From NCBI RefSeq assembly GCF_964204645.1, contig NC_134028.1, positions 5,642,001-5,706,000 of the forward strand: a stretch of DNA of 64,000 nt. The letters are read 5' to 3'. A program made the position numbers and the translations under genes. The notes under the pieces were generated by a model, which saw nothing but the letters and a program-made list of their open reading frames with translations, had not been told where the DNA came from and searched no databases. Positions 1-52,100 of the stretch are shown piece after piece; the stretch's first letter is position 1, and each line of letters starts with the position of its first letter. Source of the stretch: Tubulanus polymorphus (Eukaryota; Animalia; Nemertea).

Positions 1-1059
1 GGCGAACTCGTTACATAGACGTGTCTATCCTGTCGTGATCAAATTTGATAAGACATTCGAAAATCTATCAATCACCAAGTTCACTGTAAATTCGACAGCC
101 GATCACACAACTATATCTGTAGGCGCTACTTCGATTTCCGATTTCAAAATCAAACCCCCCTGTTTCGCTCCCGGCAGGTGTGGTGGCTATGTAAGGGACA
201 CCGAATCAAACCAAAACAAATCAAACTAAATCTATCTATCAAATAAGTAACAGGGTAATCCATATTTTAAGATTTCAAAATTAACATCCGACGTTTAAAG
301 ATGGTTTGGCCATTGATTGACAATTGAGTGTTGCGGTCTCGTCTGTCCAAGGGATGTTGATGATTTATCCATACATTCCTAGAGGGAAACTATGCATATC
401 TATCTTTCAATACTTTTTCCAGTTCTGACTGCGGTATCGACGACGCGAATCTAGATTGTTGGCGGGATAATATAGACTTCTATTCGAACGCGATTCTGCA
501 GTCTGTCAACCAGCGAGGAATCGTAGCTAATCACATCGGAGAATGGAAAAGAAAGCGAAATATGGCCATATACGACCCGGTCAGAGCGGCGGCGGTTATT
601 GAAAAAATAGCGGATAAAAACCCTGGACCTATGCCCGATAGCGCTATAAAAGTCATATTTACTGATATAGTCAACGAGGTACGTATTGCGCTGAAAACAA
701 ACGTAATTATTTCTATTCAGATAAGCTTTTATTGAGTAGTGCTGACGTCAGCATTCATGACAGCATCGTGCGTAACGGTTCTAATCTTATCGTTTCAGAC
801 GACAGTTTACGAGCAGAACTACCACGCCAAACCGCCCAAGTTCGTTTGTCCGGATAAAACATCGTGTGAATCGAATACGGCAGCTGCCGCGGTTGGAATG
901 CAAGAATCTCAAAGACTTTTCAAAGTCGTCATTATTCTACAGAGTATTATTCTAATAGCCCAATTTCTAGCGTTAGGCATCATGGGTTATTATCTGTACA
1001 AAGAACGTCGCAACAGGCAACGAGCACCGGAAGATAGTGAACTGAGGCCGTACAAATAA
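1..1059 (+). CDS. 5'-truncated spliced gene: type I membrane protein with an AroQ (chorismate mutase type II) domain and C-terminal TM helix; exons <1-177, 423-678, 799-1059
   Basis: Hand translation of 423-678 (absent from the ORF track): SDCGIDDANLDCWRDNIDFYSNAILQSVNQRGIVANHIGEWKRKRNMAIYDPVRAAAVIEKIADKNPGPMPDSAIKVIFTDIVNE, continuing TTVYEQ in the next exon. R..R..K..D..R spacing (17/11/9/3) equals E. coli CM R11/R28/K39/D48/R51. GT-AG introns 178-422 (phase 2) and 679-798 (phase 0) keep the frame. Hydrophobic VVIILQSIILIAQFLALGIMGYYLY is followed by basic KERRNRQR. Confidence 0.85.
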
Positions 1060-1628
1060 TGTCAAGGTCACATTTCGGCCGGCAATAATTGAAAAAGACA
1101 ACAAAACGGGAAACCTTTTGAATAAAATGCTACCTCTTTGTCTGCTAGAAATTTGATATGATATTTTCAACATTATTTTGGTTGTTATATAAATCAACAA
1201 ACGATATTCTAAGATATTTTCAATAATACCGTTAGAAAAAAATCTATAGAAATTTATGACAAAAGAAACGACTGTATGATAAGATTAACGGCAAATTTAT
1301 ATAGCATGTATTTTCACATTTACAAAATGTATGTAATTTCAATCTGTAATATTGAAACACAATGTAAATATTTATAGATATATACACATACAATAAGTGA
1401 TGTAAACATTTATTTGTTATGTAAAGCTTATATTCATATGTTGATGTTTCAATGGAAAACAAGCGATATTTTGTAAAAAATAAAACATTTAGATTCCATA
1501 ATATTCAATAATGAAGTTGACAGTCGATTTTGATTCAGGAAAGATGTGAAAATCATATGGAATGATCTTTGAAATCCCATTTCTCGTCGTTTTTCTGGAT
1601 TTCAACATTCCTCTTGTCTGCTGGCCAT

Positions 1629-2990
1629 TCACAGCTCGCCCCGTCGGCTATCCGCCACTTTACTGGTCAAGACAGCGTATTCAATAAATTGTTGCAGTGT
1701 GCGCAAATCAGCTTCCATGTAGCTATTCCGTTGCGCATCTTTTGCAATGATAGTACGAAATATCTCAGCCAGACCTCGAAATCTGACAACGAAGCTTGTG
1801 ACGTCACTCATATGCAGACTAATAACTACGGAATCGTCATTTTCCAGAACAAGGCCTCCGGCAAATAGGAAACCTTGCATCTTTGACTGCGATTTATTTT
1901 TAGAAGCCCTTTCGATGAATTTCGAGTTAACGTTTAATGGCGCGCTTGTATACACGATGTGAAAATAATCGGCTCGCATGATAACTAAATGAGCGGCATG
2001 GAGCACTTTCCCCGAGTTCAAGACGCGGGATCGAGCAACGCTGATGTAATACGGCCATCTGTACAATTCAAACGGTGTCGCTCCGCGCAGCAAGTCGGCG
2101 CTGTTTGAAAACGGATGTCTTTTTCGATCCGCTTGTTGGTGGACGAATTTGCAGACCAGTTCATCGCCGGCGACTTCGACCAGACAGGCGATCACTCGCG
2201 ATGGGTCAAACGTGTAAACAAAGTGTAACGTATCGTTAACTACGAACGGTGCCCAGTTCTTTTCTCGAAAGTTTAATCGTTCGTTTTGAATGATTACTTT
2301 TTGTATGGTGTTTTTTGCTAGATTCCATATGAACATATGCTCGCTGCTTTCGTAGTCTTCGCTCTGCAGCGGAAGGGACATGTATAACGTATCCCGAAGT
2401 ACGAACAGAGTCGGATTGATGGCTCGGCCGTATAGAATGTTCTTATAGCCTTTAACCTCGGGTGGAACTAGAATTCTCCCCTGGGAAACTGGTCGCAGGT
2501 TGGCATCGTATTTCTGCATGTACAGGAAGTTATCGCCGACATCTGCGTCGGGATATTTGCGCAGACGTATTTCATCTTCGGTCGGGTTGTTAACGCGAAT
2601 GCGCAAGACGACGACCAGCTCGCCTCGAAACCAAGTCATCGCCGGGCTGACAGCGCGGAGGCCAGACGTTTGGACTAGACCCCGCTGGAAGTGGGCTACG
2701 AATCCTTGTTGGATGTGCGATTCATCGAGGGCGTGAACGATTCCAATAGAAGCCGCAGCACCGAATATTTCCCCGCCCCTGTCGGAAAAATAACTCCCGA
2801 CGATAGTGAAATTTCTCATAGTTTCGATGTGTTTCTGCGTCAGACTAGCCCTGTTTATAAATTTCTCCATATCATTGTCCGCGTTATAGCTAAGAATTCC
2901 GGCAAGTTTGTAGCCGACGAATAAAACAAACGAAACGAATATGAGCAATTTCCCGATATTCAAAAACTGTCTTCTCTGTCGTTCCCTCAT
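1629..2990 (-). CDS. Type II membrane protein with an uninterrupted CDS (~453 aa); 5-bladed beta-propeller glycosyltransferase/glycoside-phosphorylase-like (GT91/GH130-like fold)
   Basis: 472-aa ORF 1629-3047. Likely start is ATG 2990 (MRERQRRQ), just after a pyrimidine-rich acceptor TTTTTCAG. Short basic tail, then TM segment LLIFVSFVLFVGY. Motifs SPAMTWFRGELVVVLR, REKNWAPF..LHFVYTFDP and LRGATP. Family assignment is from recalled motifs only. Confidence 0.7.
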   Translation of the reverse strand: MRERQRRQFLNIGKLLIFVSFVLFVGYKLAGILSYNADNDMEKFINRASLTQKHIETMRNFTIVGSYFSDRGGEIFGAAASIGIVHALDESHIQQGFVAHFQRGLVQTSGLRAVSPAMTWFRGELVVVLRIRVNNPTEDEIRLRKYPDADVGDNFLYMQKYDANLRPVSQGRILVPPEVKGYKNILYGRAINPTLFVLRDTLYMSLPLQSEDYESSEHMFIWNLAKNTIQKVIIQNERLNFREKNWAPFVVNDTLHFVYTFDPSRVIACLVEVAGDELVCKFVHQQADRKRHPFSNSADLLRGATPFELYRWPYYISVARSRVLNSGKVLHAAHLVIMRADYFHIVYTSAPLNVNSKFIERASKNKSQSKMQGFLFAGGLVLENDDSVVISLHMSDVTSFVVRFRGLAEIFRTIIAKDAQRNSYMEADLRTLQQFIEYAVLTSKVADSRRGEL

Positions 2991-3891
2991 AGTGAACTGA
3001 AAAACGCCAAGCACAGGAGAAATAACACACAAACAAATGACATTCATTTAATCTCTATAGAGATCTTCGATACGTATTTCATTTTCAAGGTTTTAACGTG
3101 TATCGAATAAAGGTCAATTCATAACCAAAAATTGAAATCACATAGTTACGTACTTTAAAAATGATCGTTAATTCCAAAGAGTTAAGTTAAGTGTATTCCA
3201 GAGTATTGTGTATTACCTTCTGTATTACGTTCGTTCGTCTGTCGTACAGTCCAGTACATTGAGGGCCAAACATGTCATAGCACCTTGCAGCAAAATCGCC
3301 CGAGCACGAACGTTACACACTACTTCATACAGTTGGTGGTCATACCTGCAATTATGTCTACAGTGATTTAACGACCGTGAAGTTGTCCAAAGGGTAACCG
3401 ATTTCTAAGCCCTCTGTTTCGTTCCCAGCAGGTGTGGTGGGTTTGTAACGGGCACTCCATCGTCATTTTGATGAACAAATTACATCTTCAACGTTATGGA
3501 AAAATTTCCCCTGGAAACTAGAGAATGATGATCTCTATTCGATTATTTTTTAAAGTTTGAACGTAGCGGAATAATGGATTGACATTATAAATTAAACAAA
3601 TGGATATTTGATTTGAGTTGAAATCAAACGGTGAACCAACCATATAGAAGCCTTTGAAACTAAAAAATCATTTTGGGCGATGTGTTAGGTCTGAGATATT
3701 GACCAGGCGGTCGACTGATAAGACGATCTATTACATCGCCATGATATGTGTAATTATTATCTGCATTGGTTGTTCAATGATTAACGCTTCATTATCCGTC
3801 AATATATACCCCTCTCATTGCTTCCACTTCACACAAACTTGTTTGTCTTCAGTTCCCGATTGATCGCAAGTCATCACTAGTCATCAACATC

Positions 3892-5015
3892 ATGTTTAGA
3901 TTCGCTGTCGTTCTGCTGTGCTTTGTCCTGTTCAGCTCCGCTTACGAGCGTAAGTACTTGGCTAAGTCCAAATCATGGTTATTGCCTTTACTGCAGAACC
4001 GCTAAGTTTACAATTTACTACCTCGATTTATTGCCGTTTTTATACATTGTCGATCACTGTCAGTCACTGCAGTCGACATTCGCGGAAGTCCTAGAATATC
4101 TTGGATCGGTCATTAGCCAGAAACGTATCATATACATATATGTATATATAACTGGATCTAAATTATTCTACGAAAAATCGGCAGTAAAGGTTCATGCATT
4201 AAATACAAATATTTGTTGAATAGAAAAACATTAACAAATCTAGAAAAATATCACTTATTAGTCGAAATCAACATAGAAAGATAACCCTTTATAATTTGCT
4301 GTGGTTATGATTTAAGTAATGAGAGATGACGAAGGTGGTGATGGAAGCGACTCCGGCAGTGGCGGCGGTGGAATTGAAGAGAGTAAGTTTATCTTTCAGT
4401 TATCTATAAGTTTTAAAACACGCCGTAATCGAAGAGAGATTCGATTTGTGTTTTTTTTCTCCTATCGTTTTAGCTTGCGTAGATAAAAGAGACACGTGCG
4501 ATGTTAAATACTGCACCAAATATGGTTACTATTTACAAATGTTGGAATACTGCCCAAAGACCTGTGGATTCTGCGGGTATGGACTCCCCATAGATATTTC
4601 AAATTTAGGCCAATTTATAATCGGAGAAACTAATGGTTGTATGTATTTCTTTTTTTCAGACAAGGTTCGTATGCAAGCATTAAAAAGACCACTCGCAGCT
4701 CTCTCTCTTGAAAAATTCAGTCATTTCGAATGAGATTTGCAATTTTACATATTAAATCTCTGTTTCTTTTATAACAAAATGTTTAGGATGTGTAGATAAC
4801 TTGGCTTATTGCGCTAGCTGGACTCACTTGTGTAACCTGCCAACCCACAAAGCCTCTATGATCAGGGATTGCAGGAAAACATGCGGATTTTGCGCGTAAG
4901 TTCAACACTCATTTATTGCTTATTGCCTTCAAAGGGGTTAACTTCTTAACTGAAGGATAACTCTTTCAATGTAAAAATTGTAAACATTTCAAAACACTTT
5001 CTTTTTAGTTTGTAA
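3892..5015 (+). CDS. Small secreted protein with two ShKT (ShK toxin-like) domains, 115 aa; exons 3892-3949, 4317-4382, 4474-4576, 4660-4664, 4787-4895, 5009-5015
   Basis: Signal peptide MFRFAVVLLCFVLFSSAYE, Gly/Ser/acidic linker, then two six-Cys domains CVDKRDTCDVKYCTKYGYYLQMLEYCPKTCGFC and CVDNLAYCASWTHLCNLPTHKASMIRDCRKTCGFC. All introns are GT-AG and the exons total 348 nt in frame. AATAAA at 5102. Confidence 0.85.
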
Positions 5016-6654: not shown

Positions 6655-11600
<4,946 letters not shown>

Positions 11601-22096: not shown

Positions 22097-25000
22097 ATGC
22101 ACCCCCGACACGCGAAAGATAACAAACACGTTTTACGGGGTAACGTTGCTCTTGTGCCTCGATGTTTGGCGGTGGTTTTGAAGGAAATACCGCGACACCG
22201 CAGTACTTCAGCTGAAGTTCTAGACGTGGAAGCCGCTGGCGGGGGCCAGAAAACTTCGAAAACCGGCCACCAACTACATCATCATGAATCGAGTCAGCAG
22301 GTCCACGACGAGCTGACTGTAAATGATGGAAATAAAACAGCATTGTCATCATCCGTCCATCATCACCATCATCATAACCACCGGAGCAGCGGTCACAAAC
22401 AACATGTTCATCATCGCATTGATTCGAAAATTCCGAAATTGGTTTTCGACGCTTTCGTGCAAGAGAATAAAAACTGCGCGTATTTAGGCGAGAGTATTCG
22501 TAAAATGAAATACAAGGGTTGCATCGAGCACGTTGTCGACGCGTTCGTGTTGCTTCTCGGCAGCGACGAGGTCGATTTGGAAATCATTCGGAATTCTTGG
22601 ACTAAGAGAATGTTGAAGCCGCCAAAAGGATTTTTCATTCATGGAATAGGTAGGTTTATGTGGTTGGGTTTCCGTAAGGTTTTATCAACAGAAATGTTGT
22701 GAGTTCAAAATTTTGGATGAACTTTTGAAACTAGGCTGTAGGATCCAGTTTTGCGGTTGCCAAGTGGGCCAAAGTCAGATGTAGGCCTATAGGCTCAGTC
22801 AAAATAGTGCATACCCTATATATGCACATTAATAGGCCTACATGCACTAATTTCCGACTTTATCTTATTTGTGCCACCAGGTGGTTCAAAACAAATTTAG
22901 ATACTTAAATGCAGTCAAACTGTGGAACTGGGTCTTGGAGCAGCTGTCAAAAAAAAATTCCTTTAGAATAGGCCTAAGCCTTTAGAATTGATTCCTTTTT
23001 GATTCAAGGCTTTTTCAAATTTGTCACTATTTAAGTTGTATTCATTGAAGAAATTGGATCATATTTTCTAGTGACTCAAGAATTGTTCAATTAATACACT
23101 TAATATTGAATTGTTCCTCTAGTTGTTTTTTTGTTAAGAAAACCGATTTACGGATTTATTTTCTCGATCTAGGTGACGTAAACGGGATCGAAATGCAGAC
23201 GATTCCTCAGACTCAGTTTATTTCGTTACCGGAAGCCGTAAGCGACGTCGTCTCCGACTTGAACGCGAACAAGATCCCGGCGACGAAGGACGTTCTGAAA
23301 CAGCGTCTTCTCGAAAACTTTCGCGGCATGCACTTACCGTCGGATAAAATGGTCGAGGAGAGCTTGCAAATTCTGGTCGCCGAACGGAAAGTTTATCAAA
23401 CCGGTAAGAAGAAATGTTCAGTTCGATGGAACTGTTTGACAGGGTGGCCACTGACCTGGGAAACCCGGAAAACTCAGGGAATCAGATAATTCTAGAAAAA
23501 AAAACAGCGAACTCAAATTTTACCAAAAACCTGAAAAATTCTGGGAATTTGGATAATGCTCATTACCTCGTGTTTCTTTATTGATACGCGATTCAATAAG
23601 AAATGAATTTTGAGTTAAACTTTTTCGTTACTCTGGGTCCTCGGCACAGTTTCATGGACCGGATTTGATAATCTTTAGGGGTTGAATCGTGAATCTTGGG
23701 AATAACTGCCCTAGTGACTATTATTAATCTGATAATGGCCCAGTACGAAAAATAATGAAGTTGTGATTACATTTTGTCTTCAATCGGTATTCAATATGCA
23801 GTCTAAACTGCAGTCCCTAATCTTTCATATCATTTTGACTAGTACTGGGTATATGATGAGGTTAGAAGAGTTCGGAATTTAGTTTTTGTTTGCATTACAA
23901 AAAATTCTTCGGAATTCTACCTGTAGCCATTCTCTCCGTTTTGAAAACTGTGACTGCGTTTAATTGAAAACGACAATCTTTTCGGTATTTTCTTTTAATT
24001 ATAGCCTAGTAGTACGGGGGTGTCGCGAACTGTTGTTCCGTTCAGATATTTCTATACTCGCTCGGTATGACTCTATCGCTATAAAATCGGTAACAAGACA
24101 ATCGGACAAAGGTTATTTCCGTAAATTCGTAGTAAACCGTTGTCGGCATTTGCTCAAGCGCGCGATTAATCCAATTTATATAGACAAGAAAACGTCGCGT
24201 GAAGCCTTTCCATTTATACTTCACTTTACTACAACAAACAGAAAGTTATCGCAAGTTTTCATTGTTTCGCAACATTCCAATTACTTGAAATAGCTTTTGT
24301 TTCGTTTCGAAACCACTCGTTGATCCGATTTTGGATTTTAGTTTTTTCATAGTGGGACTACTTAATACAATAGCGTTTCTTGAACCGGCCTTGAGACCCC
24401 AAATGCAGTGTCGAGATTAAGTTTACAAATTAATTTCAAACTTCTGTTATCGAATGTCATACTTAATGTTTTACTCTGATGAGAATTTATAATTCTGACA
24501 GTTCGCTATTGTGTACTAGGCCTACTGGGTATTAGTAGGAATTGTGCATACAGCCATTCTAAATGTACATACATAATTCACGGACAATTTTCGCTTGATT
24601 GCTCATTATTGCTGTGAGAAATCAATTAGCGTTCAGAGGCGTCATTATATAATACATGAGACATGTAATTATTGTCTGTTTATGGGGACAATAGTATGTA
24701 TTGTAACTATTATCTACTGATTAGTAAGCTTCGATTAACATGTTAACACTCTAGCCTCCATTACTATTGTCCTCTTGTTTATGACATAGTTCCTGTGCTA
24801 TGCCCCCTTTTCTTTAATTAGCAAGTCTCGATCTTGAGATCTCTTGTTCAGAGTGCCAGATTCTAGGATTTAGCAGCAACTTTATGACACCTGAATGTTA
24901 TCAATCCAGAGACACACTTCGACCCCACTAGAGTTTTATCATATTTTCTACTGATAGGTCTATTTAGATTTGTTTTTGAAACGACTTAACTGTTCTCAGT

Positions 25001-40000: not shown

Positions 40001-43000
40001 TCAGACCAGTTTTACCTGGGCCAAATTGTCCCTGTGTGATCACAGCTTTGTAGATATGTTTATCATATTGGATGAAGAGAGCTCTATTTCTTTGGAAAAA
40101 ATGCTTTTCCATGTATTCAAGTATGGCTAAGTTTATTCAGTCAGATTTCTATTATCTTAAATTTTGTTAATCAACGCAGATGACTCCTGCAAGAAAATTG
40201 TTTAAATTCTAAGATACTAAGAAAAGCCTTCTATGCAAAAGAATTCTTATCACTCCAATTTCAGGGATAAGCTAGATTTATCCTTATCTGAGAATGTTCT
40301 GATTAATTTCTTTGATGTTTGAAGTTTTTTTTGTCGTCGTTAATTCGAGAAGCTTTCTCAAGGATATCGGAGGGCTTACTTTCATCAGAGCTGATTACGC
40401 GAATAGATTTCGTAGCGCAATATAATTCGACAATCTGTCGAATTCTCTGATTTCTCCTTTGTTAAATTCGCAGATCAAAGCACTTGTTTCTTATGAGATA
40501 TTTATCCTTAGGGATTTTATTATGGAATCTGAAGGGATTTCGTTGCTGCAGCCTCGTATACACGCAGCACATGCTTTTATTGTCGCTGGATGACAGGATT
40601 CGCCTGGTCATTTATCATCCGGCTTGAATTTTTGACATAGAGCATGGGGGACACATTTGTTGCAGCTAAAGATCTGCGAGACGAAATCATGCTAAAGCTC
40701 AATGCACATAACGCAGAAGCAGAAACATGGAAAAAAATGTTTGATCTCCATGAAACCATGTTTCTGGTTTCTCGTAAACGCACACGACACAAGGAAATGC
40801 TAGGAAACATGTTTCTGTTTCCGTTTTTTCTGTTTCGATGGTCTCCATGAAAACCAGGGTTTCGGGAAACAATGTTTCCAAGATCAAACATATTTCATTC
40901 CATGTTTGGGAGTTTCCATGTTGCTTGGGTTTTTACTGATACAGGGAAATGGCATGGAAACATGTTTCCGTGTTTCCTTATATCGTGTGCATTGGCAAGA
41001 GTAAGGGTTAGCTTAACAATCATGACACTTTCATGTTCATCATTTTTGTGGTTTTGATTTTCTTGCAGGTGAAACATTCCACGTGACGCAGACTGATTCA
41101 GTAATACCGGCCGGTACGTCTGCCAGTGACCCATGTCCCATACACAGTCAACCAACCGCACCACATTCCAACAACGACGCCGCAGCCATCATCAAACAGA
41201 ATCAACTTCGCAGTTTGTCATTTCGTCTTCCGAAACAAAAGGAAAACAAGGATCCGTCACCAGGGGGCCTCGCAGCAGCGGCAGCCATGCGACCGGGATC
41301 GATACGCATCAATAACAATCGGCAACCGATTCACATTCGGCCGCCAGTCAAAAATACAAATATTAAGTCGAACAACCTGAAAGATAATGGTGAGTAAGAT
41401 GCAGTTGTCAAAAGTGTCTGCTCAAATTCAGGATCCAGTTCCTCAGTTCTGAGTTGAATTTGACTATAGAGTTAAAAACCTTAGAAATTAACTGATTTTA
41501 ACTCTGAATCACACTGTGGAACCCGGTCCAGGAATTGTGAAATTAAGCTAGAAAATTGGATTTTATGAAATGATGCATCTCATCCTTAGTCTTGGACCCG
41601 AGCACAGTTGAACATATAATCTTCGCAGATTCACTGTTCACTCCTTTTGAAAAATTGAAATGTATATCACCGTAAATCTTTTGCTTATTTCAGGAAAAAC
41701 GGAAAAACTATCATTCCTCGACAAGTTATTCGGTCGTTACAAAAAGAGGGAGCCACCGGAGAAAGACGTCGAATACGCTACATTTTCTGGTCAGTTCCCG
41801 CCGCCGGAGTGGCAGTGGTATGCTCAAACTCGTCAGGGCGCTTGTAATTACATCGTGCCGAAGTCTCAATCGTGGCATAATTCGGTGAACGGAGCGCCGC
41901 AACCTCAACAAATTCCTGAATCTCAAACTCTGTTCTCCGACATGCACATGTACGCGTGTATCGGAACGCGCGACGGTTCCGTTTCGAGCGGAGGAGCAGC
42001 CGCGTGTACGAACATGAATCGCCGATTCTGTATGACTCCCGACCCGGCGGAAATGTCGAAGCTAGTCAGTGCGTCGCCGCCGAACACCGTCTCGAATATC
42101 AGCGGCTCGCACGGGAATATCATCGGCGCGACGAAGCAGCCGACCGTCGTCAAGCGGCGCTCGCTGCGACGTAGAAAATCGCAAAACCGCAACAGCATGC
42201 CAGTGGCGCCGTCCGCCGCGGAACGGTGGAACGATACGATGAATCATCATTTCACGAAAAATAACAATAACAACGCCGTTCACTGTAGACGATCGATGGG
42301 TTATTATCCGTACTTTCACGGTAACGATATTCACATCGAATACGAAGGTAAACTACCGTCGAAGAATTCGACGTACGCGTTATCGCGGGATAGCGGAGTA
42401 AACTGCGTCGGTAAGGGCCCGACGCCGCAGCAGCCGGTCGTAACCGGTCGACAAGAGACGTGTAAAGCGCCGGTCGTCGTGGGACGTCGCGCGATGAGGG
42501 ACGCCGCGACGGCTAGCAGTAGCGGGCCGCAGTATCCTTCGCCGTGTCGTAGTTCGGAAACGTGTAAAAATGATCGCGATCACGCGCGGCAAAACAACGA
42601 CGAAACGGAAATGGAAAATGTTCCGTCGACGAGCGCCAGGTTGAGCAATAGTGATAGTATAGATAGAACGGACTGTGATGTCGCCGGTCGGTCGAACGAA
42701 TCGGAAATCGACGCTGAGTTCGTCGGAAACGACGCCAACAGCGATCGTTCGTTCGTCGTCGAAAGCGAAGGCGAAAGCAGCGCGAAAAGTTTCACCGGGA
42801 AATTACTGACGTGCAGCGAGAAATACCCGTCTCTGGGTACGGTAATCGAGGTACAACCGCCGGATGACGAGGATGACGGCGCAGTGTTCGAAGGTTCGCC
42901 CGATCAGCCGGCCGAATATTCCGGGGACTCGTGCGCGAATTCGTGCGCGCTCGAGTTCGACGGTCGCGGCATGTTACCCGAGTGCGATATGCTTGACGTC

Positions 43001-43420
43001 GATAACTACGTGACGAACCGGAACAATCGCGTCGTTGCGGCGGCAGCAGGTGGCGCCACGGGCGGCGGCAAACTGAACATGATACGATACTCGCCGTGTA
43101 TGTGTTCGCATTGTCGTCAGTTCACTTACGACTCGATGCGCGGCGCCGCGCGGCGCGTCTACGAGTCGCACATGTTCGAACAGACTCAATACACGAGTTC
43201 GTGTCCCGTTCACGGGCATTTCGTGCGTTCGTACAGCGCGCCCGTTAGCCATCACTACTGTCAACACTATATCGAAACGGACTTGGATCGCGATTCGTGT
43301 CACATGGTGCCGACGGGGGTGCCGCCGCCGTGTTACAGCCCTCCGAATTATAATTATATTCCGCCTGACGAACAGAAGCTGTCGTTTCTTGGTGATTACA
43401 AAGTGGTCGGAGTTGTGTAA
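22097..43420 (+). CDS. STOX: Storkhead-box winged-helix protein (STOX1/STOX2 family), ~943 aa; exons 22097-22649, 23173-23403, 41069-41389, 41694-43420
   Basis: SWTKRMLKPPKGFFIHGIG|DVNGIEMQTIPQTQFISLPEAV...LVAERKVYQTG|ETFHVT matches the storkhead domain (human STOX1 AWRRRALRPPRGF..GDV..QSQF..ERKIYHTGEGYFIVT). Downstream motif FSGQFPPPEW. Phase-1 introns, 2832 nt in frame. Small extra exons inside the 17.7-kb intron cannot be excluded. Confidence 0.88.
25181..25530. repeat. 40-bp minisatellite, ~8.7 copies (ATAGATACATGTATCAAACATCTGATGCAATCCGGTATAT)
   Basis: Head-to-tail period of 40 with no spacers; internal palindrome GATACATGTATC. Confidence 0.95.
25976..26219. mobile_element. hAT-like MITE with CAGGGGCG..CCAG / CTGGATCCACCCCTG ends; related copies ~34638-34873, 56335-56640, 59290-59555
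   Basis: Terminal inverted repeats visible; no coding capacity. Confidence 0.55.
27363..27806. mobile_element. CAGGGT-terminated MITE; a second partial copy at ~32570-32935
   Basis: CAGGGTTC...GACCCTG ends. About 350 bp of clear similarity to 32570-32935 (e.g. AAAACTCCTTATATCCAGGAAT in both). Confidence 0.7.
28626..29253. mobile_element. CAGGGTGGCCAC-terminated MITE with three nested tandem copies of a second MITE (28645-28982)
   Basis: Outer TIR TAAGGTGGCCACTT / AAGTGGCCACCCTG, with relatives at 23440-23550, 33431-33703 and 8266-8530. Inner units have G(A/G)TCCAGTT..CAGTT / AACTGTGGAACTGGATC ends separated by CWG-like triplets. Confidence 0.75.
31773..31806 (+). pseudogene. 5' half of a tRNA/SINE head (A box, D arm)
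   Basis: GACCTTGTTAGCTCAGGTGGTTAGAGCGCACTGC, with no T arm or B box downstream. Confidence 0.5.
35938..36446. mobile_element. MITE with CAGGGTTTCCAG.GGT TIRs and TTTAA direct repeats on both flanks; relatives at 61652-61900, 63401-63741, 50466-50781, 9158-9434
   Basis: CAGGGTTTCCAGCGGT ... ACCACTGGAAACCCTG, with TTTAA at 35933-35937 and 36447-36451. Confidence 0.75.
36655..36895. mobile_element. Foldback element/MITE with ~80-bp imperfect inverted arms
   Basis: TGAACAAAATCCAC...GCGATTTATTTTC...GTTTTGAGTTTTGACTAAAC mirrors TTTAGTCAAAACTTCAAAAC...GAAAATAAATTGCG...GTGGGTTTTGTTCA. Confidence 0.7.
36993..37045. repeat. (TA)n microsatellite, ~26 units
   Basis: Seen directly in the sequence. Confidence 0.98.
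40699..40995. mobile_element. MITE-like element rich in GGAAACATG/CATGTTTCC subrepeats
   Basis: Ends CAATGCACA / GTGTGCATTG. Internal inverted pair CATGGAAAAAAATGTTTGATCT / AGATCAAACATATTTCATTCCATG. Confidence 0.55.
41432..41528. mobile_element. Short PIF/Harbinger-like MITE with CAG target-site duplication; same family at 22742-22934 and 28645-28982
   Basis: CAG|GATCCAGTTCCTCAGT ... ACTGTGGAACCCGGTC|CAG. Confidence 0.7.
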
Positions 43421-49171: not shown

Positions 49172-52100
49172 CTAATCTAGCTCATTATATAAAGGCATAC
49201 ATTGAGGATCGTGTTTGTAAGCGCCGGAATTTTCTAGCACACCGGAAGGTGCACAGATCCACGGATCTGAAGTTTTCAACTGCCACATTTTCAATTCCGT
49301 TTGAAGCGTGGCCAGTATTTTGGTATACCGCGGCTCATGCGCCAAGTTTTCAGTTTCTTGCGGATTCGCGATTAAATCGTAAAGTTCCCACTGTGGACGG
49401 TAGTAATAGTCGTGTAACGATATCGACCAATGCGTCGGCTGGTGAGATCGGGTACGATTGAGAATATCGAGAAACGTCGGCGAAACGTAGAAGTCTTGGT
49501 CGATCGGAAACGGCATTTTGTAGTTCAAATTTTGAATCAGACGAAATCGACGATTGCGCAATACTCTCATCGGATAATACATCGTTACTTCGTGTAGATT
49601 ATGGCTCGAGTATACGGAATCCCAGCCGGTTTGCGGCTCGAATGTCAGCAGCGGGAGCATAGATTTACCGGTTAATACGACCGGGCCGGCTTTTCTAAAG
49701 ATATACGAATGCGGATAAGGGATTCGGTACCAATCCAACACGGTCGGTACAATATCAACTAGACTGGTCATAGCATCCGTCACCTGAAAAATGAGCGCGT
49801 AAATTTTCAAAGATCGGAATAAATCTCTTCCAATTAAGGAGAGACTCATCGACGACTACAGGGTGATGAGCTTAGGTATGCTTTTTCTCAACAGAGATAA
49901 GGCTAAACTTATAACTAAAGCTAAGAACTCATTTCTACTGAGCTTAGAAATTGACACAGCCGGCTGCCAATCTACCCTATAAACCTCTTTAAAGAAAAAT
50001 TATGATCAAGTTAACCGTAACCGACCTGGCAGCTATAGGAATTAACTGATTACAAATTTCATTGCAGTTTACAAAATGACCTGACCGATTAAGAGAAAGA
50101 AGCTATCATTTTTTTAAGCTAATACAGAGTAGAGACTAGGTGTGATAAATTTGAATCATGTGGTTGCTTATCATAGATCATGCTTATCATGCTTATCATG
50201 GGACTAGAACACATTCGGAAATTCCTAGAAGGCAATAAAAGAAACACCTGCCTGGCCATAGCGTTCTTTATGTGCCGGGGATGAAATAATCATTGGTTCA
50301 GCCATTCCCGGCTCATATAAGTTTGTTCGACCCATCGGAAATGGAATGCCATTATCGGAACTATATATAATCAAAGTATCATTTGCGTGTCCAGCATCGG
50401 TCAATTCTTTCAAGATCAAACCAATTCCTGTAGAATTCAAATGAATTTTCATTATAACCTGCATTCAGGGACATAGTAGTATGGCTGAGGATAAAGTAAG
50501 CATTTCTAAGCACTTTTTGATGTTGGTAAGACGGAATATACACTTTTCTTTAAAACCTCGTCTTAATCCACAAAATAAATCATTGAAGTGGACAACAGGC
50601 TATAATGGACAATTACAGGCATTATTTATATTGGCATAACACATTATTTTCCCGAAAAATAATTTTGGACAACAAAAGTAAAAAATAAGCACTTTGAAAT
50701 GTTTGTGTAATGTAAGCACTTCTTAAGGTCCTTACTATATCGTTAGCACATTTCAGCATTTTGCAGGCTACTATGGACCCGAGATTCAAATAACTTCAAA
50801 TAACGCTGGTGGGACATTCAAGTCAGAAAAAATGTAGCTATACCGAATAGTTACCTTGATCTAATCTGCTAATGGTCGTATACTGAGCAGCGATATCTTT
50901 ACGAGCGATCGGCGTGTCCGGAATGAAATACGGCACGATTACTTCATCGGGAGAGTACAATATCGGTTTCCAGTCTTTAATACGGCCCATACCGGGTTCA
51001 CCGTTACCAAACTTTTCACAAAACGATCCGTATTCCGGATGCGTGTGGCCGCATCGATGTGGATCATGGAATCCAACATACAGGAAAAATGGCCTAAAAA
51101 TCACCAGAAACTAATCGTTATAATACAACATCATCGGGCAAAAATTCTTGTGTAACAATTTGATTCTTGCCTGGTATCATTTTCATGCAGAAATTTTCGG
51201 ACAAGGTGTTTCATCAACGTGATGTTGCGACCGACTTGAAGAATCGAATTGTTTTCTTCCGTTTCGGCAAAATCAAACGGATACACAGATTCGGGCCCGA
51301 CATGTTTCTTGCCAATTATTCCTGAAAATAAACCGAATTATTTAGATTATCTAGATAATTAAATTTTCCGTTTATAATTGTAGCAGATTGTTTTTACCTG
51401 TTCTTATTCCATTATTGCGTAATATTAATGGCAAACTTAGCACTTTATCAAACGAATTGAAATGATGCACATCATGATGTAAACCATAAATTCCATTCTG
51501 ATGCTGGGGAAGTCCTGTCAAAATAGCCGATCTTTTGAAAGAAGAAAATTTCAAATGGTCAAGTTTATGGTATATCCAAATGGTCAATTTTAATGACGTA
51601 CTCAAATGGTAAATTTTTACGCCATATTCAAAACTTTTGTGATGAATTTCGATTGTTACCTGCTAGGAGAGCAACTGCTCACCGATGTAAAAGCATGTTT
51701 CACGGTGAGTCCTCGTTTCGCTAAAGCATCAATATTCGGAGTTTTACAAACTGTGTGATTGTACGCGCCAGTTTCAAAACCGGCATCGTCACCTGAAATA
51801 TGAGACACATAATCATTCATTGGCTGCGTATTCTTGCATCTTCTACAGAGGGTTTCTGAAAATTTGATATGTCTAACACTTTTTATTTGTAAGATCGTGA
51901 TAATTAAAAGAATATCTTAAGAATCTCATTTAGGATTATTAAGTATAGCATGTCAACTCGAGGCCACAAAGGTTTTTTATTGCTTGAAGTTTGGGGGTGA
52001 ATAGTAGTTTAGATCGTCCAGTGATTACTTCGTTCACACTGGGCGCTTCGACCTCGGTCAAAAAATTTCAGCAGCCCTCAAAAAGAACAAATTGTTTATA

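Follow-up and report, generated by a model that had tools for sequence, protein, structure and literature searches.

A spliced bacterial-type AroQ domain with a predicted membrane anchor in a gene of the nemertean Tubulanus polymorphus

We describe a gene of the nemertean Tubulanus polymorphus which encodes a bacterial-type AroQ (chorismate mutase) domain, interrupted by a spliceosomal intron and followed by one putative membrane helix. It lies at the beginning of a 64,000-nucleotide stretch of contig NC_134028.1 (positions 5,642,001 to 5,706,000, forward strand), referred to here as the window, and Pfam match, splice, fold and host context all agree with the original prediction of such a gene. 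We consider it an even bet that the product is a disulfide-bonded, glycosylated, membrane-tethered ecto- or lumenal dimer of old bacterial origin, which converts foreign chorismate to prephenate. The features of the locus, in window coordinates, are the following.

1..422, + strand: putative intron between a leader exon beyond the window and the exon at 423; dispersed repeat at about 84-198; not coding in the database protein P0001
423..678, + strand: coding exon with the end of the leader, two Cys, helices H1 and H2 and most of H3, including R38, R55, K66, D75, R78, A79 and N108 (P0001 numbering); CM_2 match and identity with P0001
679..798, + strand: 120-base phase-0 intron, GT..AG, with one in-frame stop; a run X2 contig lacks it to the base
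799..1059, + strand: last coding exon with the end of H3 (T110, T111, E114), then the stalk with C126 and C132, membrane helix, basic tail and stop; identity with P0001
about 916-996, + strand: membrane helix within the last coding exon; model helix 138-184 and hydropathy
1060..1297 at least, + strand: 3' untranslated region; the spliced X2 contig ends at 1297; AATAAA at 1121 (motif scan)

The database protein P0001, a chain of 195 aa named 'uncharacterized protein LOC141903785 [Tubulanus polymorphus]', is identical over residues 25-195 to the translation of 424-678 plus 799-1059, and splice signals are found as an AG acceptor ahead of 423, a GT donor past 678 and an AG acceptor ahead of 799. 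One contig of run X2 starts at 422, lacks precisely the 120 intron bases (GT..AG) and reaches 1297; with P0001 it reproduces the predicted 678/799 junction to the base. This contig establishes that the spliced form exists and says nothing on expression level, and a long contig of run X1 reads through the intron 679-798 unspliced. Runs X1-X3 are public, belong to the same study and may include the assembly's own source. The N-terminal 24 residues of P0001 form a signal-peptide-like leader, so the upstream coding sequence and a putative signal peptide, as had been anticipated, are present in the protein record, while being absent from the window. A leader exon is suggested by the database model and by the relatives P0002, P0004 and P0153; no spliced contig carries the leader.

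A second junction, 177 joined to 423, had also been proposed and was rejected, since no contig makes the joint, the frame 2-229 has neither a Pfam match nor any likeness to the chorismate mutase family, and the region overlaps a repeat; one X2 contig moreover reads 260-451 unspliced. Positions 84-198 are matched by many run contigs with differing flanks, and for its larger part the frame ending at 177 is dispersed repeat. This repeat has a second copy in the window at 3404-3455 (83% over 52 bases), and the runs contain it in many diverged forms. Both sequons cited earlier as a sign of secretion, NLS (62-70) and NST (89-97), fall outside P0001 in this largely repeated stretch; they are not in the database model because the leader of P0001 lies elsewhere and the 177/423 joint is unsupported.

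The domain assignment rests on sequence profiles and on a predicted structure. Frame 424-678 matches Pfam CM_2 (PF01817) with 54.4 bits (E 1.5e-14), above the cut-off of 27, as the proposed profile search had been expected to return, and the best sequence match of known structure is the chorismate mutase domain of Bacillus subtilis AroA(G) (5gmu, E 7.7e-9), the very relative named in the original prediction. The P0001 model (AlphaFold2, 95-row alignment) reaches a pLDDT of 84 and displays helices at 35-68, 76-88 and 96-116 and a long one at 138-184, so that the three-helix protomer with long H1, short H2 and H3 is seen in this predicted model. All 9 Foldseek matches with E<=0.001 are three-helix AroQ chains (Bacillus, Thermus, Geobacillus; rmsd 0.6-1.5 A), in keeping with the fold anticipated for this gene. 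E. coli 1ecm_B follows with an rmsd of 1.3 and an E of 0.04, PchB chains are found at rank 20 or lower (rmsd 2.3-3.5) and six-helix gamma chains at rank 28 or lower. A structure search of the atlas returned 4 bacterial CM_2 rows and no feature match. Among the NCBIfam mutase models, none of the 12 matched reaches its cut-off for P0001; the best is CM_A with 58.8 versus 106.35, and the gamma-type models give 17.9-20.5 bits (TIGR01806 17.9 versus 74.15).

Column for column, the predicted R-R-K-D-R spacing coincides with R11/R28/K39/D48/R51 of E. coli PheA, a pattern with a single occurrence in the six-frame translation of the window and just one among all 100 base-shuffled windows. The full site maps as R38=R11, R55=R28, K66=K39, D75=D48, R78=R51, A79=E52, T110=S84 and E114=Q88, the roles of the E. 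coli residues having been described (PMC5526877). Six of the eight are kept or replaced by a standard conservative swap, and Gln88 and Glu52 are changed to Glu and Ala. Thr at the S84 position and Glu at the Q88 position are found in 36 and 102 of the 149 other alignment rows, whose domain context, together with a few name look-ups, leads us to treat them as prokaryotic. An acid pH optimum deduced from Glu114 was rejected in view of the latter count. The loss of the E. coli-type Glu52, which the original prediction had not mentioned, is characteristic of the family: seven of eight site-bearing domains carry Ala or Val there (Val in five) and Glu is retained only in the paralog P0004, versus Glu in 143/149 other rows. 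According to the accessible text of PMC12329711, Glu52 binds the 4-hydroxyl of chorismate and about 80% of AroQ sequences carry Glu at this position.

The altered column raises the possibility of a re-tuned pericyclase, which would split isochorismate into salicylate and pyruvate as PchB does, or act on another enolpyruvyl compound. Val at this position is tied to isochorismate lyase activity, marking PchB and four of six annotated lyases, and the efficient mutase variants of PchB required Glu there (PMC12329711); Val is also found in the sole mutase with trace lyase activity. Besides the Ala or Val of the family, the family-specific N108, T111 and aromatic residue 113 line helix 3. The exported M. 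tuberculosis mutase, however, has Val and is efficient nonetheless (kcat/Km 3e5) with another Glu as substitute (PMC12329711). Where PchB has Ala and Tyr, P0001 keeps D75 and T110 and, with Y74, is mutase-like at the positions that tell the two activities apart; P0001 is not among the matches (E<=0.01) of the NCBIfam isochorismate lyase model, PchB ranks low in the fold comparison and P0004 retains Glu. We regard such a re-tuned site as rather unlikely. For the mutase reading, position 111 offers a candidate compensation, being Thr in seven of eight site-bearing family domains versus Arg in 102/149 others: Thr111 may take over the hydrogen bond to the 4-hydroxyl that Glu52 would have made.

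Contamination or an inactive relic was also considered, and that only three named animal proteins turned up among the best 150 of 803 matches (13 + 10 name look-ups) could be read in that sense. The exact splice, the intact site residues, the 27.4 Mb contig and the animal neighbours speak against it, as do an ortholog and a paralog of the same architecture. A contig of run X1 spanning 216-3300 links the gene with its neighbour, and the window also holds a Storkhead-box exon (63.7 bits, Pfam Stork_head) and two ShK-domain exons, so that the gene is integrated in the host genome together with its spliceosomal intron. GC3 of the mutase exons is 0.44-0.48 versus 0.48-0.63 in five other ORFs of the window, and runs X2 and X3 show three coding differences, every one of them synonymous (for transitions, p about 0.03 in a tiny sample). 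Contamination is thus very unlikely, and splice and ortholog largely refute both it and a relic, to which together we assign a marginal chance at most.

Several neighbouring features were observed along the window. Tail to tail with the mutase gene lies a stop-to-stop ORF of 472 aa with an N-terminal hydrophobic stretch (1629-3047, - strand), which weakly resembles the Pfam beta-mannosyltransferase family BMT (26.8-27 bits, cut-off 28.3) and may be a second unusual gene; we take this family to be one of yeasts. The two ShK-domain-like exons lie at 4410-4896 (+; 31.7 and 40.7 bits), probably with a leader exon near 3892, and the Storkhead-box exon at 23049-23489 (+). Further exons encode GTP_EFTU (7949-8464, +) and a sulfatase C-terminal domain (49172-49855, -), and a GC-rich ORF of 589 codons at 41651-43420 (+) has no Pfam match.

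The sequence of P0001 predicts a type I membrane protein. The leader has a hydropathy of 1.91 over residues 1-19, and the Cys-containing stalk, single transmembrane helix and short basic tail that had been described are found after the domain (C126, C132; 19-residue hydropathy of 2.57 from residue 152). N108-E-T110, straddling the splice, is the sole sequon of P0001. The N108-x-T110 sequon is conserved in seven of eight site-bearing family domains versus one of 149 other rows, and the eighth (P0005) reads into the intron at this place. Each mature unit of P0001, P0002 and P0004 contains five Cys; the tandem proteins P0003 and P0153 have two sets of five. Five Cys and an N108 sequon would fit an oxidising, glycosylating compartment. 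The secretory topology of the original prediction thus gains from the leader and the conserved N108 sequon, whereas the upstream sequons on which it had drawn drop out. The tail of P0001 comprises about 19 residues, in which a motif scan found no dileucine, tyrosine or other sorting or signalling motif. The relatives have differing tails, and in P0003 and P0153 a hydrophobic stretch closes the chain, leaving almost no tail. Lysosomal sorting of P0001 was considered and rejected for want of a motif; a PLL-acidic motif occurs only in P0006 and P0008.

When 1.84 billion representatives were searched with HMMER, 803 matches were obtained; the family was drawn chiefly from the best 150 of these, so that more members may exist. 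P0002 is the ortholog from Lineus longissimus (LOC135498284), with leader, domain, Cys stalk and membrane helix, and P0004 is a paralog, the second T. polymorphus gene LOC141900212. Other records of the same build among the best 150 of 803 are P0003, P0005, P0006 and P0008; P0153 was added from a separate search, and P0151 is a near copy of P0003. CM_2 matches were obtained for all seven family proteins scanned (40.5-67.3 bits). Domain identities of these relatives to P0001 are 61, 53, 58, 41, 42, 42 and 40%, and the best identity among the 149 other rows is 45%. P0005 diverges from the family at both places where exons of the P0001 gene end, which suggests introns shared between the two genes.

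In the trees, the 10 family domains form one clade, with an SH-aLRT of 98 in a 160-row tree (a quick method, with P0151, P0015 and P0018 left out) and 100/96 in a 57-row tree. The latter was built from the 10 family domains, 7 near rows and those 40 of the others that come first by id, omits the rest of the others as well as P0089_d1, P0151, P0152 and the E. coli row, and has a bootstrap that is not fully settled. Since P0001 groups with P0002 (99/89, 57-row tree) to the exclusion of P0004, and T. polymorphus is a palaeonemertean, the gene predates the split of Palaeonemertea and Pilidiophora, and probably its duplication does as well. The 94-column unrooted tree places the family as one clade without a supported sister group. 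A bacterial origin by horizontal transfer, as originally proposed, is compatible with these data, the nearest solved structures and models being prokaryotic, while a recent transfer is not, as the gene is old and found in at least a second nemertean class; the likely source of the domain is a prokaryote, with the transfer preceding the separation of the Tubulanus and Lineus lineages. Related DNA was confirmed for none of 192 and none of 60 pattern matches in metagenome contigs and for none of 9 in prokaryotic genomes. Word-based protein searches yielded only P0001 among 23 candidates and only the query among 19; the sensitivity of such searches was low, another one having overlooked four of its own seven input rows. 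Outside the family, P0010, P0152, P0060, P0030, P0033 and P0123 combine a three-helix AroQ domain with a hydrophobic N-terminus and are possibly exported prokaryotic AroQ-alpha proteins; in the 160-row tree they fall apart from the family. P0057 and its cluster join a chorismate mutase domain to MltG, an endolytic transglycosylase (Candidatus Kryptonium thompsonii, by source names).

The tandem relatives P0003 and P0153 provide the strongest sign of selection on the pocket. In AroQ-alpha dimers, the partner chain supplies R11 to each site (PMC5526877, PMC10520331). Domain 1 of both tandem proteins retains R28, K39, D48, R51 and Glu88 and has lost R11 (Ser, Lys), while domain 2 retains R11 and has lost R28, K39, R51 and residue 88. 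By sequence, the two domains are complementary and leave exactly one composite site, which argues for selection on that site, in a pattern that comes from two related sequences and fits catalysis and binding alike. The P0153 model (pTM 0.71) aligns over residues 31-242 with single-chain six-helix gamma and beta mutases; ranks 1-12 of its structure comparison are all mutases (Z 13.2-8.5, rmsd about 3 A; first unrelated chain 7.3). The Z values near 11-13 obtained for P0153 lie in a range that the tool itself flags, since helical bundles in general may score up to about 13. The stem of domain 2 is longer than that of domain 1 (2.84 versus 1.14, 57-row tree). The tandem proteins resemble a caught intermediate between a two-chain, two-site and a one-chain, one-site AroQ. 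For the intertwined homodimer proposed for P0001, indirect hints are the complementary residue loss and the two-domain bundle, both from these relatives.

We propose a model in which the leader would route the AroQ domain into the secretory pathway, where two chains would intertwine to a six-helix bundle with two composite sites, each made up of R55, K66, D75, R78, T110 and E114 of one chain and R38 of the other. The five conserved Cys per unit would form disulfides and N108 would be glycosylated. At the cell surface or in the lumen of gut or vacuole, the dimer would act on chorismate of microbial or dietary origin and yield prephenate, a compound that breaks down to phenylpyruvate under acid conditions. 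Because animals are without the shikimate pathway, its substrate would be foreign. The likeliest purpose would be to drain chorismate of resident or ingested microbes from siderophore, folate and quinone routes, and such an interception is plausible. As chorismate is chiefly cytoplasmic in microbes, its supply is the weakest step of this model; candidate sources are food or microbes digested in gut cells and mucus-dwelling bacteria. Further points against the model are the loss of Glu52, the weak activity of the AroA relative, the NCBIfam cut-offs, none of which is reached, and the position of the leader exon outside the window.

The AroA relative also motivates a different reading, in which the domain would resemble the Bacillus AroA regulatory domain, binding chorismate, prephenate or some comparable dicarboxylate while converting little of it, and would report or capture this ligand. 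As a mutase, the B. subtilis AroA domain is weak (kcat 0.78/s, Km 1514 uM) and serves largely in regulation, in spite of its full residue set (PMC5526877), and the presence of site residues is therefore no proof of efficient catalysis. AroA regulatory domains are the nearest solved structures, Glu52 is lost, and the pocket kept in the tandem relatives could be explained by binding alone. The K39 and R51 columns, however, are retained in all eight site-bearing family domains, and a sensor role is less likely with the short, motif-free tail of P0001 and the differing tails of its relatives, P0003 and P0153 being almost tail-less. Overall, we judge a pure binder or sensor to be unlikely.

An active mutase could alternatively face a symbiont vacuole and complete phenylalanine synthesis, as has been proposed for the host-encoded mutase of the whitefly, a gene of enterobacterial origin among further bacterial-origin metabolism genes (PMC4607527). 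A lumen-facing topology would suit this function. We know of no nutritional symbiont of nemerteans, though, and these worms are described as predators and scavengers (PMC6410017), living on protein-rich food; a nutritional partnership hence seems quite improbable, and interception of microbial chorismate by the secreted dimer is kept as the preferred reading.

We found no description of this family in the literature on chorismate mutases in Nemertea or Lophotrochozoa, where supplements and subscription journals may name such genes, and the accessible part of PMC7618685 does not mention chorismate. The animal mutases in the literature found are those of plant-feeding nematodes and insects, explained by plant defence or symbiont nutrition; new here are a different structural subclass, its occurrence in marine predatory worms of two classes, and the predicted membrane anchor. 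If active, the protein would be a host enzyme aimed at a metabolite made only by microbes, fungi, algae and plants, and a simple handle on the role of chorismate mutases beyond the cytoplasm. With so small a domain, and with standard assays and a complementation strain available, the claim is cheap to test. As a speculation that we hold to be rather unlikely, the proteins could belong to a eukaryotic family of AroQ enzymes anchored at the cell surface, old and so far undescribed, whose range would extend beyond nemerteans. Where host and microbe meet, its members would act on an intermediate of the microbial shikimate pathway, either draining chorismate or turning isochorismate into salicylate, and tandem duplication would have led the family independently to the single chain with one site that exported mutases of bacteria and yeast possess.

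Compared with known systems, P0001 shares fold, R/R/K/D/R site and spacing with the three-helix AroQ domains (5gmu, Thermus thermophilus 2d8d/2d8e, E. coli 1ecm), AroA-type chains being 27-30% identical to it. The bacterial domains, however, are cytoplasmic and mostly fused to pathway enzymes, whereas P0001 features a leader, sequon, membrane helix and introns, has five Cys per unit and Ala in place of Glu52, and comes from a group of organisms that lacks the pathway. Mutases are rare in animals, which lack the shikimate pathway, and the accessible text of PMC4828791 treats those of plant-parasitic nematodes and insects, with the nematode genes grouping with Burkholderia. Exported mutases, the nematode ones included, belong to the disulfide-stabilised six-helix gamma subclass, with a role that is considered open (PMC10520331). 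The AroQ-gamma enzymes of bacteria, fungi and plant-parasitic nematodes, such as those of M. tuberculosis and Hoplolaimina, are non-cytoplasmic and disulfide-stabilised, as predicted here, and the tandem relatives appear to reach the same one-site single-chain bundle; yet the gamma enzymes are soluble, six-helix, single-chain proteins, while P0001 is one three-helix unit with a predicted anchor and scores better on CM_A (58.8), and the nemertean gene involves no plant host. The whitefly mutase is, like the nemertean gene, host-encoded and intron-bearing and has the bacterial origin that is likely here, but belongs to a sap feeder with symbionts and an Enterobacteriales donor (PMC4607527), a comparison made by description rather than by sequence. 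PchB (2h9d) has the AroQ fold and, as P0001, no Glu at the Glu52 position, but differs in Ala for Asp48 and Tyr for Ser84, where the P0001 family has Asp and Thr, and is the weaker structural match. The gene thus belongs to the AroQ fold family and most likely operates in the mode of an exported mutase, but is not of gamma type and does without the E. coli-type Glu52.
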